Virus record (IMG/VR): IMGVR_UViG_3300027816_000081
Span: 35,865 to 99,864 of that record
Strand: one strand, 5' to 3'
Source of the DNA: a virus
Length of the DNA: 64,000 nucleotides
A program made the translations under genes and the position numbers. A model generated the notes under the pieces. The model worked only from the letters and a program-made list of their open reading frames with translations, made no database searches and was not told where the DNA came from. Shown piece after piece: positions 1,694-46,273 of the stretch; positions within the stretch are counted from its first letter, which is position 1, and every line of letters begins with the position of its first letter.

Positions 1694-4600
1694 TTATGTC
1701 TTACCGACCATTATTTCAACGATTCCTAATTCACCGTTGAAGTTTTCTAGTGATTTACCTACGATTCTTCCTGCACTAGCAGCATTATTTGCATATGCAT
1801 ATCCTGGAATAGTCGCGGTAGTTAATAAGTCACCTTTATTGACGGGGCCCATTACCTTACATGGTACACGTCCAATAAGAGCAACTTCAACTACGTTTTC
1901 GCCTTCAAGCAAGGCGTTCATGATGTATGCAGGATTAGTAGTGACAACTCCTGCAACCTTATGCGAATCAGCAACATTTTCAATCGTTACTTCATTTTCG
2001 CCGCCGAGAACAACAACTGTCCCTGGCTCATAGGCTTCGTCTGCTACGTAACGTTCTGCAAGGTCAGCGTAAGTAGCTTGCCATCTTGAACCGGCAGTGA
2101 GAGTCCAGTTACCAGTTACTGTACCTGCTGTTGTGTTTGCGCCGGTTGTGATGTTTGCTGTTTGTAGAGCTCCGCTCAACACAGTTGTAGTTGCTGTAAG
2201 ATTGATACTAGATGTTACGTTGCTTGCGGTTACGATACGAATACCACCAGAAGCAGTTGACCACGGTGCAATAGTTAGGTTAGCATTACCCTGGGCAGAG
2301 CTATTAGCATACACGATCATTGCATCGTCAGCGCCGGTCAAATTATTATATGACCCTGCGCCGGCTCTTGGAATCAAACCTATATCTTGTGTACCATTAA
2401 CGGCTCTAATGATTTTAGTGGTACTTCCTGTCCCGGATGAATCTGTAGAAGCGAAACCTGTTGTCCCAGTAACTGCGAGCGTAGTTAGTGTACCGACACT
2501 CGTGATATTAGGTTGCGCCGCTGTTGTTACTGTGCCTGCTGTTGTTGCGCTTCCTGCGCTTGTTGCGAAAGTTGCGTTAGCTACAGTACCGGTGACATTT
2601 GCACCAGTAATTGATGCTAGATTTGCACCAGACAGTCCAGCAGCAAATGTAGCGGATGAGCCAATTGCACTATTCCAAGTACCGCTAGTAACTGTACCTG
2701 TAGTAGTTAAACTTGCTGAACCGGCTAGCGGGCTTGCGCCAATTGAGTTGTGTGATATAGTTCTAGCGGTGCCACCGTTAAATGTTGTACCACTCGCATC
2801 ACCAGTGCCACCGTTGTTGAATGTTATTGTTTGTGTAGTATTAGCTGTAACTGTACCCGAGCCGCCCAATGAGATAGCAGTGCCGTTAACAGTTAGTGAG
2901 CTATTAGCAAGTCTTGTTTGTGCTAGCGTACCAGTTGTGATGTTGCTTGCATTCAACGCAGATAGACCGCTGCCATTGCCTGTAAACACACCTGTATTGG
3001 CAGTAATATTAGCAGCGGTAATATTCCCGCTCACATCCAATGATGTTAGTGTACCAACGCTCGTAATGTTGGGCTGAGCCGCAGTAGTTACCGTGCCTGC
3101 TGTTGTTGCCGATCCGGCACTAGTTGCGAAGCCTGCGTTAGCAACATTCAAGTTTGCCACTTGAGTTGTGGATGTAACGACTAATGGAGCAGTGCCAGTT
3201 GCAACGTTACTGATCAATTGAGGAGCAGTTATGTTTGCTGTTGCAAGAACTTGTGCTGTTCCCAAATTGCCGACATTTGCGTTTCCTGTAGCATTCAGTG
3301 TACCAAATACGTTTGCACCAGTAGTGGTAACATTCATCATTGCAGTATTATTTGGTGCCAATGAGATTCTTGGACCACTAGTGGCACTGCCGGTAGCAAT
3401 TGTTGCGATTGAAACTGAAACGTTATCTACAACTTGAGTTCTGAATATAGTATTAGGTGAATTCAAGTCGTTATAGATGCCGGAACCAGTACCTGCGGTT
3501 CTGATGCCTAATTGTCCGGTGCCAGTTGCAATATCCAAGAAGTAACCAGAACCAAGACCAACGTTAATTGATAACGGACTGTTGGTTCTTACACCACTTC
3601 CTGCTACAACAAGAACGTTTGCGTTTCCTGCTGCTGAAATATTCACATTACCATTTGCAGCAGGAATACTGACATTACTGTTGCCGTTTGCAAAGACACC
3701 GAGTAGATTGCCGACGGTAACATTTCCTGTTACTGATAGTGAGGTTAGTGTACCTACTGAAGTGATATTTGGTTGTGCGGCTGTTGTTAAAGTACCAGTT
3801 AATAGACTTGCACCGATTGTACCTGAGTTGGCATAAACATTACCAGCAGTTACGTTACCGGTAACACTGGCGCTCGTTAGAGTACCGACGCTCGTGATAT
3901 TTGGCTGTGCCGCTGTTGTTAAAGTACCAGTTAGTAAACTTGCACCGATTGTACCTGCGTTAGCATAGACGTTGCCTGCGGTGACATTTCCAGTAACAGC
4001 AAGACTTGTTAACGTACCGACGCTCGTGATATTTGGCTGCGCCGCTGTTGTTACTGTGCCTGCTGTGGTTGCAGTTGTCGCACTAGTTGCAGTGCCGCTT
4101 AGTGAACCAACAAACGTAGTAGCAGTGATACTTGCATTAGCTAAGTTAGCACTAATTGCTGTATTGATTACTGCACTTGAATTTCCATTTGCGCTTGAAG
4201 TGCTAAATGTTGGGTATACAGTAGTTGCTGCTGAGGTATTTTGTAATAATGCACTAGCATTGGTTGCTGCTGTTGCGCTTGCTACAGTACCAGTAACATT
4301 AGCGCCCGGTATGTTAGACAAGCTCGTTGCATTACCACTGAACACATTAGCTGTAATAGTTCCTGATGTAACTGTGATGTTTCCAGCGTTGATATTACCA
4401 GAAACAATCAGTGATGTGATCGTACCAAGACTTGTAATATTGGGTTGGGCAGCAGTTGTCACAGTTCCGGCTGTAGTTGCAGTTGATGCAGTGCCGCTTA
4501 GTGAACCAACAAACGTAGTAGCAGTGATACTTGCATTAGCTAAGTTAGCACTAATTCCCGAGTTAACTACCTGCTGCGACCATCCATTTGATGCAGAGGT

Positions 4601-7600
4601 AACGAATGTCGGGAATGCGCTAGTTGCACTTGAAGTATTAGTCAACAAACTGCTTGCAGAAGCAGCATTTGCAACAGTTCCGGTTACGTTTGCACCAGGA
4701 ATATTACTTAGATTGGTAGCATTTCCTGAGAAAATATTAGCAGTAATTGTACCTGATGTAACTGTTATGTTTCCGGCGTTAATGTTTCCAGAAACAATCA
4801 ATGATGATATCGTACCAAGACTTGTGATATTTGGCTGTGCTGCTGTTGTTAAAGTACCAGTTAGTAAACTTGCACCGATTGTACCTGCGTTAGCGTATAC
4901 GTTTCCAAAAGTTGCAGTGTTTACAACTGTTAGTCCACCGCCTACACTAAGATTCCCAGTATTTTTGTTGAAGGTTAAGTTCGCATTACCTGCGTAAGTT
5001 GAGCCGCCATCATTGAAAATAACTTGTGTGTTAGCACCTTGTGCAGGAACTAATGTAGCGGTATCCCATGTTAGACTGCCTGAACCATTCGTTCTTAAGA
5101 AAGCACCGTTGGACCCGCCTGTAATAATTACGTTACTGTTGGGGCCTAGATTGCTCACACCAACTACGTTAAGACCAGTTAATGTACCCAAACTCGTTAC
5201 ATTAGGCTGCGCCGCTGTTGCTAGCGTACCGGTTACCAGTGTAGCAGAAATATTTCCTGCCGACAAATTACCTGTTACGTTAGCAGTGCCATTGATATTT
5301 GCACCAGTACCGGTTACGACTACAACGTTAGCATTTCCGGCGGAACTGATTCTCACATTGCTGTTAGCGTCAACTGTTACGTTTGAGTTACCGTTGACAA
5401 TGAAACTACCTGCACTAACTGCGATGTTAGTCAATAGACCACCGTCACCCTGGAAGAAGTTTGCAACTGCAAGATTGCCTAAGTTTGCATTTCCTGATGA
5501 TAGATTTCCAGAAACAGTCAATGAAGACAGTGTACCAACACTCGTAATGTTTGGTTGCGCTGCTGTAGTTACTGTACCTGCGGTAGTAGCTGCACCAGCA
5601 GTAGCAGCATTCAAGTTAGCAACTTGTGTAGTACTTGTTACTACTAGCGGAGCTGTACCAGTGGCAACATTTGATATTAGTTGAGGCGCAGTAACGTTAG
5701 CAGTTGCAAGAACTCGTGCTGTGCCCAAATTACCAACGTTAGCATTACCTGTTGCATTGAGTGTTCCTGCAATATTTGCACCGGTCCCGGTTACGACTAC
5801 AATGTTAGCATTACCGGCGGCGCTGATATTGACATTGCCATTTGCAGCAGGAATATTAACATTGCTGTTTCCGTTTGCCAAAGCACCTATGAAATTACCC
5901 GACGTAGTGTTTCCACTCACACTTAAACTGGTCAATGTGCCAACACTAGTAATGTTGGGCTGAGCGGCAGTTGTTACTGTACCTGCTGTGGTAGCACTCG
6001 TTGCTGTTGTAGCTGAGTTGGCAGTACCATAGAAATTACCAATGAAGAAATTAGCATTTACAGCATTTCCTAAGTTAGCATTTCCTGATGAGATATTTCC
6101 ACTAACAGACAGCGAAGTGAGAGTACCGACACTCGTAATATTAGGTTGAGAAGAAGTTGTTAACGTCCCACCTAACAATAGAGCACCGATTGTACCTGAG
6201 TTAGCATACATATTGCCAGCAGTTACATTACCCGTTACCGCAAGAGAAGTTAAAGTACCAACGCTTGTGATATTAGGTTGCGCTGCTGTTGTTACTGTGC
6301 CTGCTGTAGTTGCAGTAGTTGCACTAGGCACAGTGCCAGTCACGTTGGCGCCAGCTAGATTAGTAAGTCCTGCGCCATTACCAGTAAAGATTCCGGTATT
6401 TGCAGTGAATGCGACTGCGGTTACAGTTCCGTTTACACCAAGTGATGTTAGCGTGCCAACACTAGTGATGTTAGGCTGTGATGCAGTTGTCACAGTACCA
6501 GCAGTGCCCGCGGTAGCAGCATTCAAGTTTGCAACTTGAGTAGTTGATGTAACTACTAGTGGTGCAGTACCAGTTGCAATATTACTGATTAACTGCGTGC
6601 CTGAGATGTTTCCAGTAGCAATAACTCTGCCTGTACCTAAATTAGCAACATTAGCATTACCGGTTGCGTTTAACGTACCTGCTACGTTGACACCTGTACC
6701 AGTCATTACTACGACATTAGCATTTCCTGCAATGTCAAAATTGATGTTTCCGTTAGCAGCAGGAATAGCAATGTCTGAGTTGCCATTAGCAAGATTACCT
6801 ACAAAATTAGCAGCGGTGACATTACCCGTAACTGATAGACTTGTCAACGTGCCTACTGAGGTAATGTTTGGTTGTGCAGCGGTTGTTACGGTGCCGGCAG
6901 TAGTTGCACTTGTTGCTGCACCAGACAGAGCACCAACAAATGTAGTTGCAGTAATAGAGGCGTTACCTAAGTTCGCACTAATACCTGTGTTGATTACTGC
7001 ACTTGAGTTTCCATTCGCACTTGAGGTAGTGAATGTCGGATATACTGTTGTTGCAGTTGAGGTGTTCTGTAGAAGTGCGCTTGCATTTGTTGCTGCGCCT
7101 GCTGTGGCAGCATTCAAGTTTGCAACTTGTGTGGTTGAGTTGACAACAAGAGGAGCAGTACCAGTTGCAACGTTTGAGATTAATTGGGGAGCAGTGACAT
7201 TGGCAGTAGCTAATACTTGTGCAGTTCCCAAATTACCAACGTTAGCGTTACTTGTTACGCTTAATGCACCGGTGGTAGTTAAGTTGCCACCTGTGATATT
7301 TCCAGTTACGTTAGCGGTGCCTGTTGCAACAATTGATGTAGTTCCCAAATTACCAACGTTAGCGTTACCTGTAGCATTTAATGTACCAGTAATGTTAGCT
7401 CCGGTTGCAGTAACGTTCATAGTAGCGTTACTTCCGATTACTATGTTGAGGTTTCCGCCGGAGACAGGGATGTTGGCATAGCTAGTGCCATTCAATATTC
7501 TTGTATTTGCAACTGCACTTACGTTGGTAAGATTACTTCCATCGCCGTACAAGAAATTAGCATTTACTATATTAGCATTGATGTTGCCGGCAACATTAGC

Positions 7601-8200
7601 AGTTGCAGCGGTAATTAGTGCAGTAGCATTAATATTTCCTGCATTGACATTTGCTGTAATGTTAGCATTGGCAGTAACATTCAAGTTACCAGTTACGTTT
7701 GCATTTGCACCTACTAGTATATTGTTGGTAATATTAGCATTGTTGGCATTAACATTAGCAGTAGTAGCTATGTTTCCTGTAAAGCTAGCGGTATTACCGT
7801 TGATTTGTAGATTAACATTGACGGTATTAGCGGTAAGAGTGTTTCCTATAGTGATATTTGAAACACCGGTGACATTTGCCGGCAAGTTAATAAAGAACGG
7901 AACTGAGCCGTTAGTAATAAAGGCTAGTGGGCCGGGACTAGCGGGTGAGCCAGTAGAAAGATCAAGAGTAGAACTTTCAATTCTGACTTGAGCGATGTTA
8001 GCACTTACAACAACATTTCCAGTAGGCGAGTTAACGGTGATACCTGCACCTGCGGTTCTATTAACCGAGATAACTGCCTGATCTTGAAGACCTGAAAATA
8101 ATTCGGTAAAATTCTGTTGAACTTTGTCAAATGCTGTTCTGATTGCATCTGCATTTGGATCGTCAGGAAAACTACCAAAGTCAATATTGCGTTGTGCCAT
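1694..8200 (-). CDS. Very long tail fibre/adhesin (~2170 aa) with TTAGTVTTAAQPNITSVGTLTSL repeats and C-terminal intramolecular-chaperone-like domain
   Basis: Many copies of the repeat; C-terminal YADLAERY...VAGVVTTNPAY..N...VALIGRVPCKV.G...KGD module; ATG 8200 (MAQRNIDFG) preferred over 8212 because of SD spacing and upstream late promoter. Confidence 0.85.
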   Translation of the reverse strand: MAQRNIDFGSFPDDPNADAIRTAFDKVQQNFTELFSGLQDQAVISVNRTAGAGITVNSPTGNVVVSANIAQVRIESSTLDLSTGSPASPGPLAFITNGSVPFFINLPANVTGVSNITIGNTLTANTVNVNLQINGNTASFTGNIATTANVNANNANITNNILVGANANVTGNLNVTANANITANVNAGNINATALITAATANVAGNINANIVNANFLYGDGSNLTNVSAVANTRILNGTSYANIPVSGGNLNIVIGSNATMNVTATGANITGTLNATGNANVGNLGTTSIVATGTANVTGNITGGNLTTTGALSVTSNANVGNLGTAQVLATANVTAPQLISNVATGTAPLVVNSTTQVANLNAATAGAATNASALLQNTSTATTVYPTFTTSSANGNSSAVINTGISANLGNASITATTFVGALSGAATSATTAGTVTTAAQPNITSVGTLTSLSVTGNVTAANFVGNLANGNSDIAIPAANGNINFDIAGNANVVVMTGTGVNVAGTLNATGNANVANLGTGRVIATGNISGTQLISNIATGTAPLVVTSTTQVANLNAATAGTAGTVTTASQPNITSVGTLTSLGVNGTVTAVAFTANTGIFTGNGAGLTNLAGANVTGTVPSATTATTAGTVTTAAQPNITSVGTLTSLAVTGNVTAGNMYANSGTIGALLLGGTLTTSSQPNITSVGTLTSLSVSGNISSGNANLGNAVNANFFIGNFYGTANSATTATSATTAGTVTTAAQPNITSVGTLTSLSVSGNTTSGNFIGALANGNSNVNIPAANGNVNISAAGNANIVVVTGTGANIAGTLNATGNANVGNLGTARVLATANVTAPQLISNVATGTAPLVVTSTTQVANLNAATAGAATTAGTVTTAAQPNITSVGTLSSLTVSGNLSSGNANLGNLAVANFFQGDGGLLTNIAVSAGSFIVNGNSNVTVDANSNVRISSAGNANVVVVTGTGANINGTANVTGNLSAGNISATLVTGTLATAAQPNVTSLGTLTGLNVVGVSNLGPNSNVIITGGSNGAFLRTNGSGSLTWDTATLVPAQGANTQVIFNDGGSTYAGNANLTFNKNTGNLSVGGGLTVVNTATFGNVYANAGTIGASLLTGTLTTAAQPNITSLGTISSLIVSGNINAGNITVTSGTITANIFSGNATNLSNIPGANVTGTVANAASASSLLTNTSSATSAFPTFVTSASNGWSQQVVNSGISANLANASITATTFVGSLSGTASTATTAGTVTTAAQPNITSLGTITSLIVSGNINAGNITVTSGTITANVFSGNATSLSNIPGANVTGTVASATAATNASALLQNTSAATTVYPTFSTSSANGNSSAVINTAISANLANASITATTFVGSLSGTATSATTATTAGTVTTAAQPNITSVGTLTSLAVTGNVTAGNVYANAGTIGASLLTGTLTTAAQPNITSVGTLTSASVTGNVTAGNVYANSGTIGASLLTGTLTTAAQPNITSVGTLTSLSVTGNVTVGNLLGVFANGNSNVSIPAANGNVNISAAGNANVLVVAGSGVRTNSPLSINVGLGSGYFLDIATGTGQLGIRTAGTGSGIYNDLNSPNTIFRTQVVDNVSVSIATIATGSATSGPRISLAPNNTAMMNVTTTGANVFGTLNATGNANVGNLGTAQVLATANITAPQLISNVATGTAPLVVTSTTQVANLNVANAGFATSAGSATTAGTVTTAAQPNITSVGTLTSLDVSGNITAANITANTGVFTGNGSGLSALNASNITTGTLAQTRLANSSLTVNGTAISLGGSGTVTANTTQTITFNNGGTGDASGTTFNGGTARTISHNSIGASPLAGSASLTTTGTVTSGTWNSAIGSSATFAAGLSGANLASITGANVTGTVANATFATSAGSATTAGTVTTAAQPNITSVGTLTTLAVTGTTGFASTDSSGTGSTTKIIRAVNGTQDIGLIPRAGAGSYNNLTGADDAMIVYANSSAQGNANLTIAPWSTASGGIRIVTASNVTSSINLTATTTVLSGALQTANITTGANTTAGTVTGNWTLTAGSRWQATYADLAERYVADEAYEPGTVVVLGGENEVTIENVADSHKVAGVVTTNPAYIMNALLEGENVVEVALIGRVPCKVMGPVNKGDLLTTATIPGYAYANNAASAGRIVGKSLENFNGELGIVEIMVGKT
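4088..4556. repeat. Identical 70-bp direct repeat (4088-4157 and 4487-4556) inside the fibre gene
   Basis: tgcagtgccgcttagtgaaccaacaaacgtagtagcagtgatacttgcattagctaagttagcactaatt occurs twice, 399 bp apart (in frame). Confidence 0.9.
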
Positions 8201-8223
8201 GTTAATTATCACCCATTATATTG

Positions 8224-38783: not shown

Positions 38784-40181
38784 TTAGTTTTTCTTGAGAG
38801 AATTTAACAGTGATTTTAGTTTTGCCCCTTCAGTATTTGATATGACTTTTGATTCTGTAGTAGGTAGGTTGTTAACAGTTTCGCTTACTGAACTCGTAGT
38901 TTTGATTTGATTCATTAATTGTGCTGGAGTCTGCGTATGAGTCCTGCCTTCTTCTGGATCCTCATCAGTAATACGCATAGTATCAATATTATATTCCAAG
39001 TCAATCTTTTGACCAACACCAGTAGAACTACGAGATTTCATACACTGAATTTGATACTTGCCTCGCTCACGCATAGAACGTGAAGTGAAGATACCAAACA
39101 CATAGTCCGCAGTATTGATCTTAGAGATACCACCTGCAATGTGACTGTGATCAAACTCAATTTCTTCAACAGCCGAACGATTCAACTGCGAGGCTGTGAT
39201 CATAAGAATGCCAAGCTCCTTCGCTAGATTGCGAAGTTCTTCCGACACATACTTGTCTTTAATGAACTGGTCATTTGGATTGACCTTGACACTGACAGGC
39301 ATAACAAGATCAAGATAGTCAATCATAACAAAGTCAATCTTGATGCCTGTCTGAATCTGCACTTCCTTGATATATGCACGAATAGCGTTGACGTTGCTTT
39401 GTGCAGGCAATGCCTTAACACGATACTGCCCCATCTTCTTGCCGTTCATCTTAACACGCAATGCAGTGTCTTCCATATTCTTACGAATATCCTTCGTACT
39501 CATACTAGTAAGCATGGCGTCAGTACGAAGCGAAGTCAATTCTTCTGAAAGTTCAAGGGTCACATAAACACCACTTAGACCCTGTGCAAGCCAGTTAAGT
39601 GCGATGTTCATCATAACAAGAGACTTACCAGAACCAGAGCCGCCGGCGAAGATGTTAAGTTCACCACGACTCATACCACCATACATAAGTCTGTCAAGCT
39701 GGGGCCAGCCAGTAGACACCTGACCACCCTGATTGAAGTACTTGTTCAATCGTTCTTGAGGATCAGCAAAATAATCTGTACCCATATCACGCTGCAAACT
39801 GATTTGCACTGCGTCCTTGACTAGCTTTTCAACCGGATCAAACTCGCCCTTCTCAAGCAAGTCTGCTGCCTTGAGAATAGCACGTTCAAGTTCCTGACGC
39901 TTAGTGAATGCTTCAAATTCTTCTAGAAACCAATCATAGTGTCCCTGATCAAGTTCAGGGATATGATCAATCGTTTCGCTAGTAGTTGCCTTGATTTGCG
40001 TAGGGTCAGGCATGATGGAGTACTTAGTAGTGTGCTCCACAATGAATTCTGCAACTGGACGTAATCTACGATCAAAGTTTTGAGGATTCATGATGTTCAT
40101 AACACGAGTATACAACTCAGCGTTAGTAACCATCATTCGTAAAAAGAGTTCCTGAACATCAGTATTATATTCTTTTAGCAA
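38784..40181 (-). CDS. gp41: Replicative DnaB-like helicase (gp41-like)
   Basis: AGGSGSGKS Walker A, YVTLELSE, IDYLDL, TASQLNRS, MKSRSS.G. Confidence 0.93.
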   Translation of the reverse strand: MLKEYNTDVQELFLRMMVTNAELYTRVMNIMNPQNFDRRLRPVAEFIVEHTTKYSIMPDPTQIKATTSETIDHIPELDQGHYDWFLEEFEAFTKRQELERAILKAADLLEKGEFDPVEKLVKDAVQISLQRDMGTDYFADPQERLNKYFNQGGQVSTGWPQLDRLMYGGMSRGELNIFAGGSGSGKSLVMMNIALNWLAQGLSGVYVTLELSEELTSLRTDAMLTSMSTKDIRKNMEDTALRVKMNGKKMGQYRVKALPAQSNVNAIRAYIKEVQIQTGIKIDFVMIDYLDLVMPVSVKVNPNDQFIKDKYVSEELRNLAKELGILMITASQLNRSAVEEIEFDHSHIAGGISKINTADYVFGIFTSRSMRERGKYQIQCMKSRSSTGVGQKIDLEYNIDTMRITDEDPEEGRTHTQTPAQLMNQIKTTSSVSETVNNLPTTESKVISNTEGAKLKSLLNSLKKN

Positions 40182-41142
40182 TTTTCTTCCTCATCATTTC
40201 CAATTTGATTTTACTGTTAGTAGCTGATTGTAAGATACTTAGTAGTGTAGGGACTTTCCCGTACTTTCTTATAGCATCATTGGTATCCTTTATTTCCTCA
40301 CTCCAGTTTGGAATAGATACGTGAAATCCTAATTCTAATGCTCTGTCGCATACCTGCATCCCTGTCTTATCTAAGTCGGGAACAACTATAATTTTACGAT
40401 TTAGTCTACGCAATAATTCTGCTTGCTCATCGCTGATAGTGTCGTGTGTCAATGCACATCCATTGATACTCAGTGCGTCAAAAATACCTTCAACGACAAT
40501 ACACACTTCATATTCGGGCTTTTGTAAATCTAAGCCAAATACATATCCTAGCTGCTGCTCCTTGATATACTTAGGGATGCGATTGTCTAGATATCTGCTG
40601 ATATGACCTACGATCTTACCATCCATAGTATATGGAATAATAATTCTGTTGCTATTTCTTCCTTCTTCGTCAGGCGTAATCATGAAGGGATAATCTTTTA
40701 CAGATAATCCTCTATCATGAATGTAGTCTGCAAACTTTTTATGCTCTATATTATTCTCATCAATCAATATAGCATTTTCGGGAAGTTCAGTTTCCTTAAA
40801 TACAACTTTAAGTTTCTTGCGCTTGACTTTAACGTAGTCAATCAAATCCTTTTGCTGCAAGCTCTCAAAGTTGTATTTTGTAATTAATTCGTCTGATACT
40901 CCACAATACCCTAACAGTAGACGTAGATTTTTACTGAGTGACTTACCCAATGTGAATCTGCATTTGAAATCGCAGTTAAAGCAGTGATAGGACCAGTTGT
41001 CATCTTCGTCAAACTTGATGCCGCCGCGCATACGTCTGTCGGGTTTGTGACCGCGATTATGGCAGCAGACCGCATTGAAGCTTACCCAGCCCTTTGCAGT
41101 TGTTTTCTTTCTACCAGGTATGATGGTCAGTATATCAAACAC
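40165..41142 (-). CDS. gp61: DNA primase (gp61-like)
   Basis: N-terminal Zn finger (CC.H...HCFNC), RIIIP, TOPRIM VVEGIFDALS, PDLD..G, KD.ND. Confidence 0.9.
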   Translation of the reverse strand: MFDILTIIPGRKKTTAKGWVSFNAVCCHNRGHKPDRRMRGGIKFDEDDNWSYHCFNCDFKCRFTLGKSLSKNLRLLLGYCGVSDELITKYNFESLQQKDLIDYVKVKRKKLKVVFKETELPENAILIDENNIEHKKFADYIHDRGLSVKDYPFMITPDEEGRNSNRIIIPYTMDGKIVGHISRYLDNRIPKYIKEQQLGYVFGLDLQKPEYEVCIVVEGIFDALSINGCALTHDTISDEQAELLRRLNRKIIVVPDLDKTGMQVCDRALELGFHVSIPNWSEEIKDTNDAIRKYGKVPTLLSILQSATNSKIKLEMMRKKIAKRI

Positions 41143-42008: not shown

Positions 42009-42386
42009 ATGAATGAAGAATTTTTCAAAAGACTAAGCGAAAACCACCCGTTCATTACTATATGTACATATAGTAACCAAGATTACGTGGGTATTATCCA
42101 AAACAGAGACGATACTGTTACTACAATGTATGACTATGGAGCGATAGTGCAGCCCGAACTTAGGGCTAAGTTCTTAGAATTAGGTGATATTTGGTGGTGG
42201 GAATCAAATAGATCAATTCCCATCAATATTTTTTTGAAAGAAGAATGGATTATCTTTAAGCCATTCATCAAAACATTCAACAACAAAGGGTTAGATATAG
42301 TTCACGGACCCGTCGTTAGTATGACAGACTTCACTAAGAAAAGAGCAAAGCGTAGAAGTATTACACTTGTAAAAAGAATGCCTTAA
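42009..42386 (+). CDS. Hypothetical late protein
   Basis: YVGIIQN, WWWESNR.IPINIFL; TAAATA upstream. Confidence 0.75.
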   Translation: MNEEFFKRLSENHPFITICTYSNQDYVGIIQNRDDTVTTMYDYGAIVQPELRAKFLELGDIWWWESNRSIPINIFLKEEWIIFKPFIKTFNNKGLDIVHGPVVSMTDFTKKRAKRRSITLVKRMP

Positions 42387-42664
42387 TCCCGATTAGGGAA
42401 AAGTGTAAGTGAAGAACACTTAATATATCTGCCATTGCTATCCTTGACAATGATTTGAATGTCATTAGTTTCATCATCTAGATTTACTTTCGCCGGATGA
42501 TCTTCTCCAAACTCAAGTTTGATATCTTGAATAATATTATCTAGCATTTCTTCTGACATTTGCTGATTAAGATATTTTTCCATAATGGACATTACCTTTT
42601 TACCAGTAACATGATCGGCAACACCGGCTAATGTATAGTTAGTACTCGTATCAAATGTTGACAT
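42383..42664 (-). CDS. Hypothetical protein
   Basis: 93-aa ORF ending the operon. Confidence 0.6.
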   Translation of the reverse strand: MSTFDTSTNYTLAGVADHVTGKKVMSIMEKYLNQQMSEEMLDNIIQDIKLEFGEDHPAKVNLDDETNDIQIIVKDSNGRYIKCSSLTLFPNRD

Positions 42665-42667
42665 AGT

Positions 42668-43183
42668 TTAGTTCTTTCTAGCTTTCTTCTTTAGTTCTTT
42701 CTTTCTTTTATCCTTAGCCATCTTGTAAGTCAAGTCACCTACTCGTTGGTCAAACGTTACCCCAAACAAATGATCAAACTCGTGCAAGTACACACGGCTT
42801 TCTAATCCAGTCAATTCACGCTCAACAACCTCACCGGTTACTGTCTGATACTGCACATTGCAAGACCCTGCGCGTTTAACTTTCATGAACAAGTCAGGGA
42901 AGCTCAAGCATCCTTCCATATCAACAATTCTGTCTTCGGATAGTGACACAATCTTTGGATTGATACAAGCAACTAGTTTTTGAAAGTTGCCCATGATAAA
43001 GATTCTTTTCTGGATCCCAACTTGAGGGGCAGCAAGACCAACTCCCCCATTTTCAATCATGAACTTGAACATTGCCTTGATAAGTTCCTCAGGATTGCCG
43101 TCAACTTCAAAATCCCATTCAGTTGAAGTATCAAGTAATTGCGGATGGCCTTCAGGCAATAGTTCTAAGTTATATTCAGTCAT
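42668..43183 (-). CDS. def: Peptide deformylase
   Basis: GVGLAAPQVG, EGCLS and HEFDHL motifs all intact. Confidence 0.95.
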   Translation of the reverse strand: MTEYNLELLPEGHPQLLDTSTEWDFEVDGNPEELIKAMFKFMIENGGVGLAAPQVGIQKRIFIMGNFQKLVACINPKIVSLSEDRIVDMEGCLSFPDLFMKVKRAGSCNVQYQTVTGEVVERELTGLESRVYLHEFDHLFGVTFDQRVGDLTYKMAKDKRKKELKKKARKN

Positions 43184-43520
43184 TGGTTACGTCACCTTTT
43201 CTATAGCTATACCAAATTGTTTCAACAGGAGTTTCAACACTAAACGATTCCTGTTTCATTCCCTCACGGAGTAGTTCAGCAATCTCAATTGCTTTAGCAG
43301 TCAGTGTTGCAGGATCTGAAGGGAAGCGTGGGTAGTTAATTAATCCTACTTGTATCCCGTGTTCAGTTCCTCCCTTGTAGATGTATTCTACCATCTTGAG
43401 AGTGACACAGAATCCTACTTCGTCACAATACTTCTTTAGTATCTTTTCTGCTACGGGATAACTTCCGGCAATGTGAATAGTAATCGGAAATGATTTCTCA
43501 ACTTTAACTAATGGTTTCAT
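43176..43520 (-). CDS. Hypothetical protein
   Basis: YCD.VGFCVT, YIY.GG.E.G..VGLINYPRFP. Confidence 0.75.
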   Translation of the reverse strand: MKPLVKVEKSFPITIHIAGSYPVAEKILKKYCDEVGFCVTLKMVEYIYKGGTEHGIQVGLINYPRFPSDPATLTAKAIEIAELLREGMKQESFSVETPVETIWYSYRKGDVTND

Positions 43521-43522
43521 TT

Positions 43523-44095
43523 TTAATTCTTCTCTTGTAACAGGTTCATATGCACAACTACAAGCTGGGCGTAAGCAATGGCGTGACTTTTCTTGAAGCT
43601 ATAGCCATCACTATCCTTATCCCATACAGTCTTTGCGACTTCTTTCCATGTCAACCCTTGCAAGTGTTTTTTAGCAGGACGCATTACAGCAAGAAACATT
43701 GCCAGTCTAGGAATGCTATCAATTGGTTCGGGCATACGTTGCATGATGTTGAACGAGTTATTAAGGTGAATCAATTGCTCTACTGTAACACGATTTTTTA
43801 GCATAGTCCAATCAGGATCTTGCATCAACTTGACTAAATGCAACTCATCCCTGACATTTTCATAGACATGGACATTCAATAAATCTAGTTTAAAGTATCC
43901 GCGTTCTTCTGCTTCCGTGTAATCTAGCGAACACATATCATTTTCTGGATCGTAAGGAATATCAGTGATATATATACCACTAGGATGTTTACGCATAGGA
44001 GTGACATTACGCATTGCCGCAGGCGTATGAGCGATCAACTTTAATAGTTGTTCACGATCACCTACGTCAATGTCAATGTCACTGTCAATTCTCAT
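43523..44095 (-). CDS. Miniature DNA polymerase III alpha (DnaE)-like catalytic core
   Basis: SDIDIDV, HPSGIY, GYFKLDLL and YSFKKSHAIAYA motifs in 190 aa. Confidence 0.82.
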   Translation of the reverse strand: MRIDSDIDIDVGDREQLLKLIAHTPAAMRNVTPMRKHPSGIYITDIPYDPENDMCSLDYTEAEERGYFKLDLLNVHVYENVRDELHLVKLMQDPDWTMLKNRVTVEQLIHLNNSFNIMQRMPEPIDSIPRLAMFLAVMRPAKKHLQGLTWKEVAKTVWDKDSDGYSFKKSHAIAYAQLVVVHMNLLQEKN

Positions 44096-44649
44096 CGGAT
44101 GTGAGTCAATCCAGCCTTAATCAGAATCTTGTATGCATCTTGAATAACACGAGCCTGATGAATTGCGTCTTCAACAGCTTTGTGAGTTGTCTTTGTACCA
44201 TACTTAGGATCCTTAAGGCTTACGCCAGCAAGATCATAAATCGTTCGGCAATCACGAATGTTCCAAAACTGCCATGGGAACTGCATACCAAGATCACGGA
44301 ATGCACTTTCTGCTACTGCGATATCAAAGATCGAACCGTTAGCCCAAACCTTGTCACAGTTCCAGCAGAATTTGTAAAGCTTTTCCATTGCTTCCCGATA
44401 ACTAATACGATCACGATCACCCATAGCTTCTTCAATAGCGTCAGGGCTTTGCTGACCCCACCAATCCATTGTAGCATCACTAATCGTGCGATTATAAATT
44501 TCTGTTTGTTCTTCCATTGTAGGACGAAGATCAAGAGTTTCAATCATGCCCATACCTTTCGGATCAAACGCAACTGCACCAATCGTTAGAATAACGGTCG
44601 ACGGCGCAGTGTCAAGCGTTTCCATGTCCAGCATAATGTGGCGGGCCAT
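44092..44649 (-). CDS. DEDD-family 3'-5' exonuclease
   Basis: MLDMETL, WANG..FD, RDCRT, HKAVEDA. Confidence 0.88.
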   Translation of the reverse strand: MARHIMLDMETLDTAPSTVILTIGAVAFDPKGMGMIETLDLRPTMEEQTEIYNRTISDATMDWWGQQSPDAIEEAMGDRDRISYREAMEKLYKFCWNCDKVWANGSIFDIAVAESAFRDLGMQFPWQFWNIRDCRTIYDLAGVSLKDPKYGTKTTHKAVEDAIHQARVIQDAYKILIKAGLTHIR

Positions 44650-44680: not shown

Positions 44681-44709
44681 AATATACAGGATAAGTTGTC
44701 TGTTGTCAA
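44681..44709 (-). promoter_or_regulatory. Sigma70-like promoter TTGACA-N17-TATATT
   Basis: Upstream of exonuclease/mini-DnaE/def operon. Confidence 0.75.
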
Positions 44710-44786: not shown

Positions 44787-45317
44787 ATGACTATTTACAC
44801 CAGCAAGAACTACCGCAAAATATACGAGCAACATTACGGTCCTATTCCCAAGGATAGTGACGGTAGAACGTATGAGATACATCATATTGACGGTGATAGA
44901 AATAACAACGATCCTAGTAATCTATTATGTATATCAATCCAAGAACATTACGATATTCATTATCAACAAGGTGATTGGGCTGCGTGTCTTGTGATGGCCG
45001 GGAGAATGAAAATATCTCCGCAACTAAAGTCAGAATTATCACGCAAAGCACAATTAAACCTCGTAGAGCAAGGTATTCATCCTTCCTCCCGCCGAACATC
45101 ATCTGACTTTACTCCAGAATGGAGAGCTAACATTTCTGCTGCAAAGAAAGGCAAGCAAACTTGGAACAAAGGGATACTGAGAACTGAGGAAGAAAAAACT
45201 AAGATGAGGGAAGGACATTCTAAGCGTGAAAGAATAGAATGTCCTCACTGTAAAAGAACAATAGACAAACCTAACTTTACTAGGTACCACGGAGATAAAT
45301 GTAATTCTAAGTGTTAG
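44787..45317 (+). mobile_element. Free-standing HNH homing endonuclease with NUMOD3-like repeats
   Basis: YRKIYE...GPIP, EIHHIDGDRNNNDPSNL, EHY..H, NISAAKKGKQTWNKG, C-terminal CPHC...HGDKC; inverted relative to neighbours with own late promoter and SD. Confidence 0.88.
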
Positions 45318-45996
45318 AACTCCAAATGTTGTCTATCTTTTTCACATCTTCCATTATATCACCGTTTAGGTAATTTAGCAAGAGCATAGGGCGAGGTTCG
45401 GGAAAATAATTGGGCATACTGCTGTGCAATAGTCTACAGTTATACATCAATACAGAACCTTTGGGCATGTATCTTTGCTCGTGGAAGTCCCAAAAATATT
45501 TGTTATATGCCCCGTTATAACACAAGTCAATATCCCAATCAGGTTCATGACTGTTGGGTACAAAGCCTGTTGCACCCATTTCAGGTGTAGTATCTTGTAA
45601 TGACACAATACACTGTACTCCTAGTAATCTAGGGTCCATATTCCATTGTTTGAACCTGTGCGGCGTGTCTACGTGCGGATTAACTAGATTAGTATTTCCG
45701 TTAATCGTAATAATGTCGCTCGTATACCAAACAGCATTGTCAAGTTCTTTATTGATACGAGTGATTAGAAAATCATTGATTAGTTTGACTTCCCACCAAT
45801 CCATAACCGTTTGGCTCCACCAATAACTAATATCGGTTAGCTTACTAATGTTCTCCCGTTCTTCGTAACGTTTACCTGAACTGGTTGCACGGACCGGATA
45901 TAACGTATCCAGTTTGCTATTAATGCCATCAATTAGTTCATCAGGTATCACGTTCTCAAAGAACAGATATCCTTCACCCTCAGTTAAATCATTCAC
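45307..45996 (-). CDS. PhyH-family 2OG-Fe(II) dioxygenase
   Basis: HVD (HxD), GATGFVPNSH, GSVL...RLLHSS..N...R; likely GTG start at 45996. Confidence 0.87.
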   Translation of the reverse strand: MNDLTEGEGYLFFENVIPDELIDGINSKLDTLYPVRATSSGKRYEERENISKLTDISYWWSQTVMDWWEVKLINDFLITRINKELDNAVWYTSDIITINGNTNLVNPHVDTPHRFKQWNMDPRLLGVQCIVSLQDTTPEMGATGFVPNSHEPDWDIDLCYNGAYNKYFWDFHEQRYMPKGSVLMYNCRLLHSSMPNYFPEPRPMLLLNYLNGDIMEDVKKIDNIWSSNT

Positions 45997-46273
45997 ATAA
46001 TTTCCAATGCGTGTATGTCTTTTCATCAAGAATGATATAGCCTGATACCTTGAACCATGGACCGAGATAGCGAGGTTCTTTATAATATTTGTAGCACCAT
46101 TCTTCTAATTCACTGGTTCCCCTAGCACGATGGTCTGCGTTGCGAATAGGTATACGAATAAATTGCCGTTCTTCCCACGCACCATTAACTGCAACTTGCT
46201 TTTTAATCTTCTGTTCTACGGGAACAGCCTCAATAATATCATAGTCAATATAGTCGGATGCTCTTAACCCCAT
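45989..46273 (-). CDS. Small hypothetical protein (tandem family member)
   Basis: ELEEWC...DEKTYTHWKL. Confidence 0.65.
   Translation of the reverse strand: MGLRASDYIDYDIIEAVPVEQKIKKQVAVNGAWEERQFIRIPIRNADHRARGTSELEEWCYKYYKEPRYLGPWFKVSGYIILDEKTYTHWKLCE

Follow-up and report, generated by a model that had tools for sequence, protein, structure and literature searches.

A 190-residue protein of an uncultured giant phage matches the metal-binding subunit of a split minimal DNA polymerase III alpha

RESULTS

Gene organization of the locus

The window, which is the whole stretch of 64,000 nucleotides that we analyzed, corresponds to G000:C1:35865-99864 of a 99.9-kb IMG/VR viral contig from an uncultured giant phage. 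CheckV put the source contig at 29% completeness. Therefore, the phage genome would be roughly 340 kb. Two overlapping minus-strand genes form the locus. The upstream gene (44092..44649) encodes a stand-alone DEDDh 3'-5' exonuclease of 185 aa. The downstream gene (43523..44095) encodes a 190-aa protein that matches PHROG 11778 ("DNA polymerase") end to end (3.9e-54). The PHROG match, a homolog profile, and a structure model assign it as the C-terminal (Mg2+- and template-binding) half of a split minimal DNA polymerase III (Pol III) α. At the junction, cac atc cgATGAgaa, the start codon of the 190-aa gene (ATG) and the exonuclease stop codon (TGA) share a four-base overlap, as the original prediction had stated.

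Further downstream are a small opposite-strand gene (42009..42386, plus strand; phrog_11637, 3e-31), a primase gene (40165-41142, minus strand; phrog_47, 1.5e-38; Toprim), and a gp41/DnaB-like helicase gene (38784-40181, minus strand; phrog_19, 8.8e-73). The window also encodes a UvsW-like helicase. Between the polymerase half and the opposite-strand gene, at 42383-43520 on the minus strand, are genes for a 114-aa protein (phrog_4848), a peptide deformylase (PF01327, 9.1e-39), and a 93-aa protein. Cultured relatives have nothing at this position. The position of the deformylase gene varies among close relatives, and in one distant locus (L139) it is directly upstream of the polymerase half.

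The region's best match to a sigma-70-like promoter, TTGACA-17-TATATT (11/12; 44681..44709, minus strand), is 32 bases upstream of the exonuclease ATG. It comes from a consensus scan only, which found 16 sites against 8.6 expected in shuffles and is not evidence of function. An operon running from the exonuclease through the polymerase half and the 114-aa gene to the deformylase might possibly start at this site. Immediately upstream of the exonuclease and polymerase-half genes, the opposite strand carries a homing-type endonuclease gene with HNH_3 and NUMOD3 domains (44787-45317, plus strand; PF13392, 1.6e-13; phrog_12324, 1.2e-33), which is probably a mobile insertion. A gene for a PhyH-like 2OG/Fe(II) dioxygenase (45307-46029, minus strand; PF05721, 6.3e-12) comes next.

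Conservation and predicted fold of the 190-aa protein

The 190-aa ORF has no Pfam match, and a Pfam scan of it found no PHP, finger, HhH, or OB domain, which agrees with the original prediction. Hence the canonical DnaE architecture, with PHP, thumb, full fingers, clamp-binding, and OB parts in one chain of at least ~1,100 aa, is not found in this ORF. The final 35 residues match three DnaE-type PHROGs. As a single-sequence query against PDB sequences, the protein found no polymerase, and a profile was needed. A megablast search with 5 kb around the gene gave no match among cultured phages.

Among 1.84 billion protein representatives at 50% identity, 377 are relatives of the 190-aa protein (E-values up to 0.001 accepted), and the full-length ones have 183 to 216 aa. 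At 90% identity there are at least 7,978 clusters of this half, with lengths of 187 to 203 aa. Conservation was read from an alignment of 77 sequences with 30 to 55% identity to the window's protein. In this alignment, residues D6, D8, K69, D71, R139, and P140 are invariant, and D10, H37, G40, K168, and H171 are conserved at 90% or more. The motifs DIDID (residues 6 to 10), HPSG (37 to 40), KLDLL (69 to 73), and FKKSHAIAY (167 to 175) are present in the order first read from the sequence, and they are collinear with E. coli Pol III α. The three catalytic Asp residues said to be retained are D6, D8, and D71, which are invariant in all 77 homologs. Variable length and lost Asp residues had been named as signs of a pseudogene; the lengths and the Asp residues show the opposite.

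A profile built from the 77 homologs found only family-C polymerases among solved structures. The matches were from E. coli (5fku/2hnh, 8.6e-6), Thermus (2hpi/3e0d), and M. tuberculosis (5lew/7pu7). Profile positions 4 to 21 correspond to E. coli Pol III α residues 399 to 418 (PDFDVDF), positions 54 to 140 to residues 538 to 641 (KFDFLGL...LFRPG), and positions 151 to 181 to residues 739 to 770 (YGFNKSHSAAYA).

We predicted the structure with AlphaFold2 and the 77-homolog alignment, and the model has a pLDDT of 95.8 and a pTM of 0.88. The top 12 Foldseek matches are all Pol III α or PolC, with weak E-values (5.6e-3 or worse). The comparison with the Pol III palm that the original prediction had proposed was carried out with VIA-align against 12 family-C entries. 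These were the best matches, with Z scores of 6.2 to 9.6, an rmsd of 3.2 to 4.0 Å, and 176 to 187 of the 190 residues aligned; the next best structure scored a Z of 3.8.

The model spans E. coli residues ~397 to 780, Thermus residues 458 to 836, and PolC residues 967 to 1299. Compared with the E. coli enzyme, it lacks ~87 residues between its residues 21 and 54, a gap that we take to be the thumb (domain limits as reported in Lamers et al. 2006). A second gap of ~87 residues, this one in the fingers, falls between residues 140 and 151, and nothing beyond E. coli residue ~780 is present. In all, the model skips ~190 residues of the E. coli stretch 398 to 780. What the 190-aa protein shares with DnaE/Pol III α (2hnh, 5fku, 2hpi, and 3e0d) and PolC (3f2b) is the Pol-β-type palm, the DxD...D triad, and the KxD motif. 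It also has the RP and F(N/K)KSH finger motifs of DnaE/PolC, and the fold match extends over the whole 190 aa.

The complementary half lies outside the window

When the whole contig was searched in six frames with PF07733, one match appeared, at C1:31531-31764 on the minus strand (2.9e-9). The ORF that holds it is L001:1504-2031. Homologs of its product fall into more than 8,000 clusters, almost all of them 169 aa long. Therefore, the true start is the second Met. The gene so defined (C1:31534-32043, i.e., window -4330 to -3821; minus strand) encodes the 169-aa N-terminal NTP-binding palm half (GRGS...EFLK). The protein matches PF07733 positions 19 to 94 (7.6e-8) and PHROG 11127 ("DNA polymerase," 1.8e-40). 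Its gene is 3.8 kb to the left of the window start and 47.3 kb from the 190-aa gene. Both are on the same strand, and the metal-binding half is upstream.

The original prediction had stated that neither flank holds the missing DnaE parts. This holds for the flanks and for the window as a whole, but not for the genome. The idea of a self-contained miniature core fails on the same result, because the GRGS part of the palm is encoded separately on the same contig. Complementary DnaE pieces elsewhere had been named as the mark of a split polymerase, and the 169-aa gene is such a piece.

The two proteins fit together closely. The C terminus of the 169-aa protein, ...GVGRGSSVASFVLFLIGVHKINSLYYGLEIDEFLK, aligns to Thermus Pol III α residues 406 to 454. 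The 190-aa protein starts M-R-I-D-S-DIDID, and its model begins at Thermus residue 458/459. Because the first half ends at 454 and the second begins at 458, the pieces abut. The palm is thus cut between the GRGS/ERFL helix and the DxD strand. No sequence is left over at the junction, and therefore there is no intein. We considered a trans-spliced, intein-split DnaE and rejected it, because the halves come within ~3 Thermus residues of each other with no unaccounted sequence. The cyanobacterial Ssp/Npu DnaE is likewise a family-C polymerase from two distant genes, but it carries an intein, whereas the phage halves have none. The cyanobacterial split site is also different, in the fingers.

Compared with bacterial DnaE/PolC, the phage pair lacks the PHP, thumb, distal fingers, β-clamp-binding, HhH, OB, and τ-binding parts. 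Its palm is divided between two polypeptides that total 359 aa, whereas a bacterial DnaE has ~1,160 aa. Because the window's own contig is so incomplete, we examined domain absence in relatives. Neither a complete 364-kb uncultured relative nor any of three large fragments has a match to PHP, DNA_pol3_finger, or HHH_6. The complete relative has terminal repeats, and its two halves are 41 kb apart.

The N-terminal ~65 to 75 residues of the 169-aa half have no DnaE counterpart. The first ~70 residues are conserved among homologs and contain a DKYGQ motif. Near the 169-aa gene are an RFC/gp44-like clamp-loader gene, read from the translation and cut by the locus end, and a GroES-like co-chaperonin gene (PF00166, 8.1e-6), at L001:3-371 and L001:631-999 on the minus strand.

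Natural single-chain fusions of the two halves

P0171, a predicted protein of 375 aa, contains both halves. Residues 190 to 371 match the 190-aa protein, and residues 74 to 180 match the 169-aa protein (39% identity, 4e-21). In the full alignment, the first half occupies residues ~12 to 180 and is followed by ~8 linker residues and the second half. Further fused clusters, P0271 and P0272 (78 to 81% identical), and the members P0406 and P0407 are on at least 10 ENA and Logan contigs, the longest of 33 kb. The fused forms are rare and have 375 to 376 aa. Their DNA was not found in IMG/VR or the JGI metagenomes, and they are known as predicted proteins only. These natural fusions join half 1 to half 2 and so lend indirect support to the idea that the halves work together.

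The model of the fused protein has a moderate pLDDT of 69.3. Residues 1 to 83 and 207 to 242 are poor, and the core is well predicted. The low-confidence stretches include the one that matches the N terminus of the 169-aa half. The alignment behind the model was checked by MAFFT of the same sequence set and by identity values. Against Pol III α and PolC, the model has Z scores of 13.3 to 19.5 over 251 to 289 aligned residues. The next best matches, a CCA-adding enzyme and Pol β, reach a Z of 3.8. The Pol III α match covers Thermus residues 291 to 830 and E. coli residues 275 to 773, so that it starts with the first palm residue and extends into the proximal fingers. In a quick tree with an arbitrary root, the five fused proteins group together (SH-aLRT 100), and their clade branches from within the split forms (nesting support 90 to 92). 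This placement suggests that the fused form arose by secondary refusion of split halves.

One other protein, P0238 (233 aa), has ~107 residues of the polymerase half followed by unrelated sequence. It is probably from a chimeric contig or a truncated gene.

Occurrence and gene order in cultured phages

By tblastn, 96 cultured phage records contain the 190-aa half and 98 contain the 169-aa half, and these are essentially the same phages. Three weak matches come from the full-length DnaE of Streptomyces phages. In the ~96 cultured jumbo-phage records, which include PA5oct, RaK2, 121Q, and Atu_ph07, each half always has a gene of its own. The distance between them is 44 kb in PA5oct-type phages, 31 kb in 121Q, 34 kb in RaK2, 182 kb in Atu_ph07, 116 kb in SCTP-2, 14 kb in RAS14, and 4.7 kb in RsoM2USA. 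The window's 190-aa protein is 48% identical to that of PA5oct, 44% to that of Atu_ph07, and 36 to 37% to those of RaK2 and 121Q.

The gene order is also conserved. In Ettore, 121Q, Atu_ph07, SCTP-2, and a 141-kb Alishewanella phage, a UvsW-like helicase gene is followed by several genes, the polymerase half, the small opposite-strand gene, one or two genes, the primase gene, and the gp41-like helicase gene. The primase and helicase downstream of the polymerase half have the same order in Ettore and 121Q. In the five phages, the small gene, which comes right after the polymerase half, overlaps its 3' end.

The original prediction had noted that T4-like phages normally replicate with a family-B enzyme. 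A whole-contig search found one in this T4-like giant phage, as a PF00136 match in a 906-aa open frame (C1:~900-2400).

The Alishewanella phages, at 141 kb, are below the 200-kb jumbo threshold. The 190-aa half has a match in vB_AspM_Slicko01 (L089), and the 169-aa half has one in its relative Slickus01. Slicko01 also encodes a clamp loader (RFC small subunit), 2 kb upstream of the metal-binding half.

The upstream exonuclease is a neighbor in one clade

The original prediction read the upstream gene as a 3'-5' exonuclease, and the domain search bears this out. The 185-aa protein matches PF16473, Rv2179c-like 3'-5' exonuclease (6.9e-38), and phrog_255, "exonuclease" (3e-44). Among solved structures, 8kel ("Exodeoxyribonuclease") is closest in sequence (1.1e-6). 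The 227-aa length of 8kel would match that of phage T4 DexA. The protein is a member of the T4 DexA-type/Rv2179c-like exonucleases (PF16473, PHROG 255), here translationally coupled to a polymerase half. We know of no established proofreading partnership for this family.

We examined the coupling in 80 close IMG/VR loci, whose polymerase half is 68 to 94% identical to the window's. Six had less than 300 bp of upstream DNA and were left out. In all of the other 74, the exonuclease is immediately upstream, with exonuclease identity down to 54%. It abuts the polymerase half in 57 of them, and an insert of 215 to 665 bp lies between the two genes in the other 17. However, none of 118 distant loci, from subclades with 35 to 50% identity, has the exonuclease within 2.5 kb. 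P0236 as a query returned no loci.

Cultured genomes gave a similar picture. PF16473 was not found in the whole genomes of Ettore, Atu_ph07, SCTP-2, and RsoM2USA, i.e., four of the five cultured genomes checked, and the fifth, 121Q, has it at a distance of 39 kb from the polymerase half. The upstream neighbors of this half carry no nuclease domain in either Ettore or 121Q. The exonuclease family itself is in more than 1,000 phage records of many kinds. Therefore, the coupling is a stable trait of one clade and not of the enzyme family. The predicted polymerase-exonuclease pair stands for the window's own clade and falls as a family property. A consistent exonuclease partner, as in an α-ε type pair, is not seen across the family.

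DISCUSSION

We conclude that the 190-aa ORF very probably encodes the C-terminal subunit of a split minimal Pol III α, which would dock with the 169-aa protein to form a small auxiliary polymerase beside the family-B replicase. In such an enzyme, the 190-aa protein would supply the β-strands with the metal-binding residues D6, D8, and D71 and a shortened finger element with the RP and FKKSH motifs. The 169-aa protein would bring in the palm helices that come before these strands, together with the GRGS loop that binds the triphosphate. The two proteins would dock and rebuild one Pol-β-type active site; because there is no intein, we infer that they do so without covalent joining. The product would be a small DNA-templated polymerase of low processivity, without PHP, thumb, clamp-binding, HhH, and OB parts. 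Alongside the primase and helicase, this auxiliary enzyme may fill gaps, contribute to repair, or carry part of replication. In this phage's clade, an exonuclease gene has come to lie directly upstream and is translationally coupled. Efficient templated synthesis is uncertain, because the thumb and every DNA-clamping domain are lost.

The original prediction suspected that similar genes had been described before, and this is the case. A split minimal Pol III α of group 2.2 jumbo phages (RaK2/PA5oct/Atu_ph07 type) was published in 2021 on the basis of sequence (Iyer, Anantharaman, Krishnan, Burroughs, Aravind 2021, Viruses 13:63; PMC7824862; sections 3.4.1 and 3.5 and Fig. 3b). Its two pieces are an NTP-binding subdomain and a Mg2+/template-binding subdomain, and the authors propose a role in one-strand synthesis or repair. 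The published enzyme (PHROG 11778 plus 11127) has the same split point and distant gene placement as the one described here. It keeps the same company as in the window phage, i.e., a family-B polymerase, a gp41-type helicase, and a primase, and the other Pol III domains are wanting in both. However, the window clade has the exonuclease gene joined at the 5' end by the ATGA overlap and the 114-aa gene, peptide deformylase, and 93-aa gene inserted downstream. The parts of PMC7824862 that deal with the split enzyme make no mention of the exonuclease coupling or the downstream inserts. We found no bench test of any split mini-Pol III member in the literature. What is added here is one more member, the clade-specific exonuclease neighbor, and the natural fused forms.

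The exonuclease of this clade may edit for the polymerase in trans, or it may be an unrelated nuclease. It could be a working proofreader for the split polymerase, as ε is for α; alternatively, it could be a DexA-like passenger that salvages nucleotides or processes DNA ends. The adjacency and translational coupling conserved within the clade are consistent with a proofreader, as are the DEDDh-type family signature and a mini-polymerase without PHP or other editing domain. However, the linkage is limited to one clade, an insert parts the genes in 17 of the 74 loci, the exonuclease is not of the DnaQ/ε family, and its family is common in phages of many types that have no split polymerase. We therefore consider a proofreading role somewhat unlikely. 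The fuller proposal, that the split mini-Pol III of a freshwater-type RaK2/PA5oct-like clade recruited a DexA/Rv2179c-like DEDDh exonuclease as a dedicated trans proofreader, is unlikely. If true, it would be a three-protein minimal family-C polymerase, made of an NTP-binding half, a metal-binding half, and an editor, that reinvents α-ε from unrelated parts. In that case, the rare 375-aa single-chain fusions would rank as the smallest family-C polymerases in nature.

It is very unlikely that the two-chain enzyme is a Pol-β-fold nucleotidyltransferase with nonreplicative chemistry, such as template-independent tailing, RNA-end repair, or signal-nucleotide synthesis, or that it is a noncatalytic scaffold. 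Such chemistry would suit the loss of the thumb, clamp-binding, and OB domains. Below the family-C matches, the core resembles a CCA-adding enzyme, Pol β, and other nucleotidyltransferases (Z of 3 to 3.8), and jumbo phages encode many conflict systems (PMC7824862). But the DnaE-specific RP and FKKSH finger motifs are invariant or nearly so, and the gene is in a conserved replication neighborhood with primase, gp41-like helicase, and UvsW-like helicase. The invariant Asp triad speaks against a scaffold.

We find it hardly credible that the 190-aa protein is a self-sufficient mini-nucleotidyltransferase and that its gene and the upstream exonuclease gene make up a two-gene unit for polymerization and editing. 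All three catalytic Asp residues are within the 190-aa protein, the two genes overlap by ATGA, a single promoter-like site precedes the pair, and the adjacency holds in all 74 close relatives down to 68% identity of the polymerase half and 54% of the exonuclease. Yet the protein lacks the GRGS part of the palm, which the same genome encodes in the 169-aa gene, and we rejected self-sufficiency on this ground. The exonuclease is absent from the vicinity of the gene at the 118 distant loci, and PF16473 is missing from four cultured genomes and remote in 121Q. Moreover, in the natural fusions the part joined to half 2 is half 1 and not the exonuclease.

That the 190-aa gene is a decaying fragment of a host-acquired full-length DnaE has a negligible probability: it is one-sixth of the DnaE length and has no Pfam match of its own, but this reading is contradicted by the narrow length range of the 377 representatives and of the clusters at 90% identity, the invariant catalytic residues, the very confident compact fold, and the synteny kept across cultured phages of several proteobacterial host genera.

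With the split minimal Pol III α as the preferred reading, no smaller version of the bacterial replicative polymerase core is known than this family, which is made of two separate proteins and is very abundant in metagenomes. The natural fused forms could serve as convenient single-chain constructs for biochemistry.

Elsewhere in the window, at 1694-8212 on the minus strand, there is a very long ORF of 2,172 aa.
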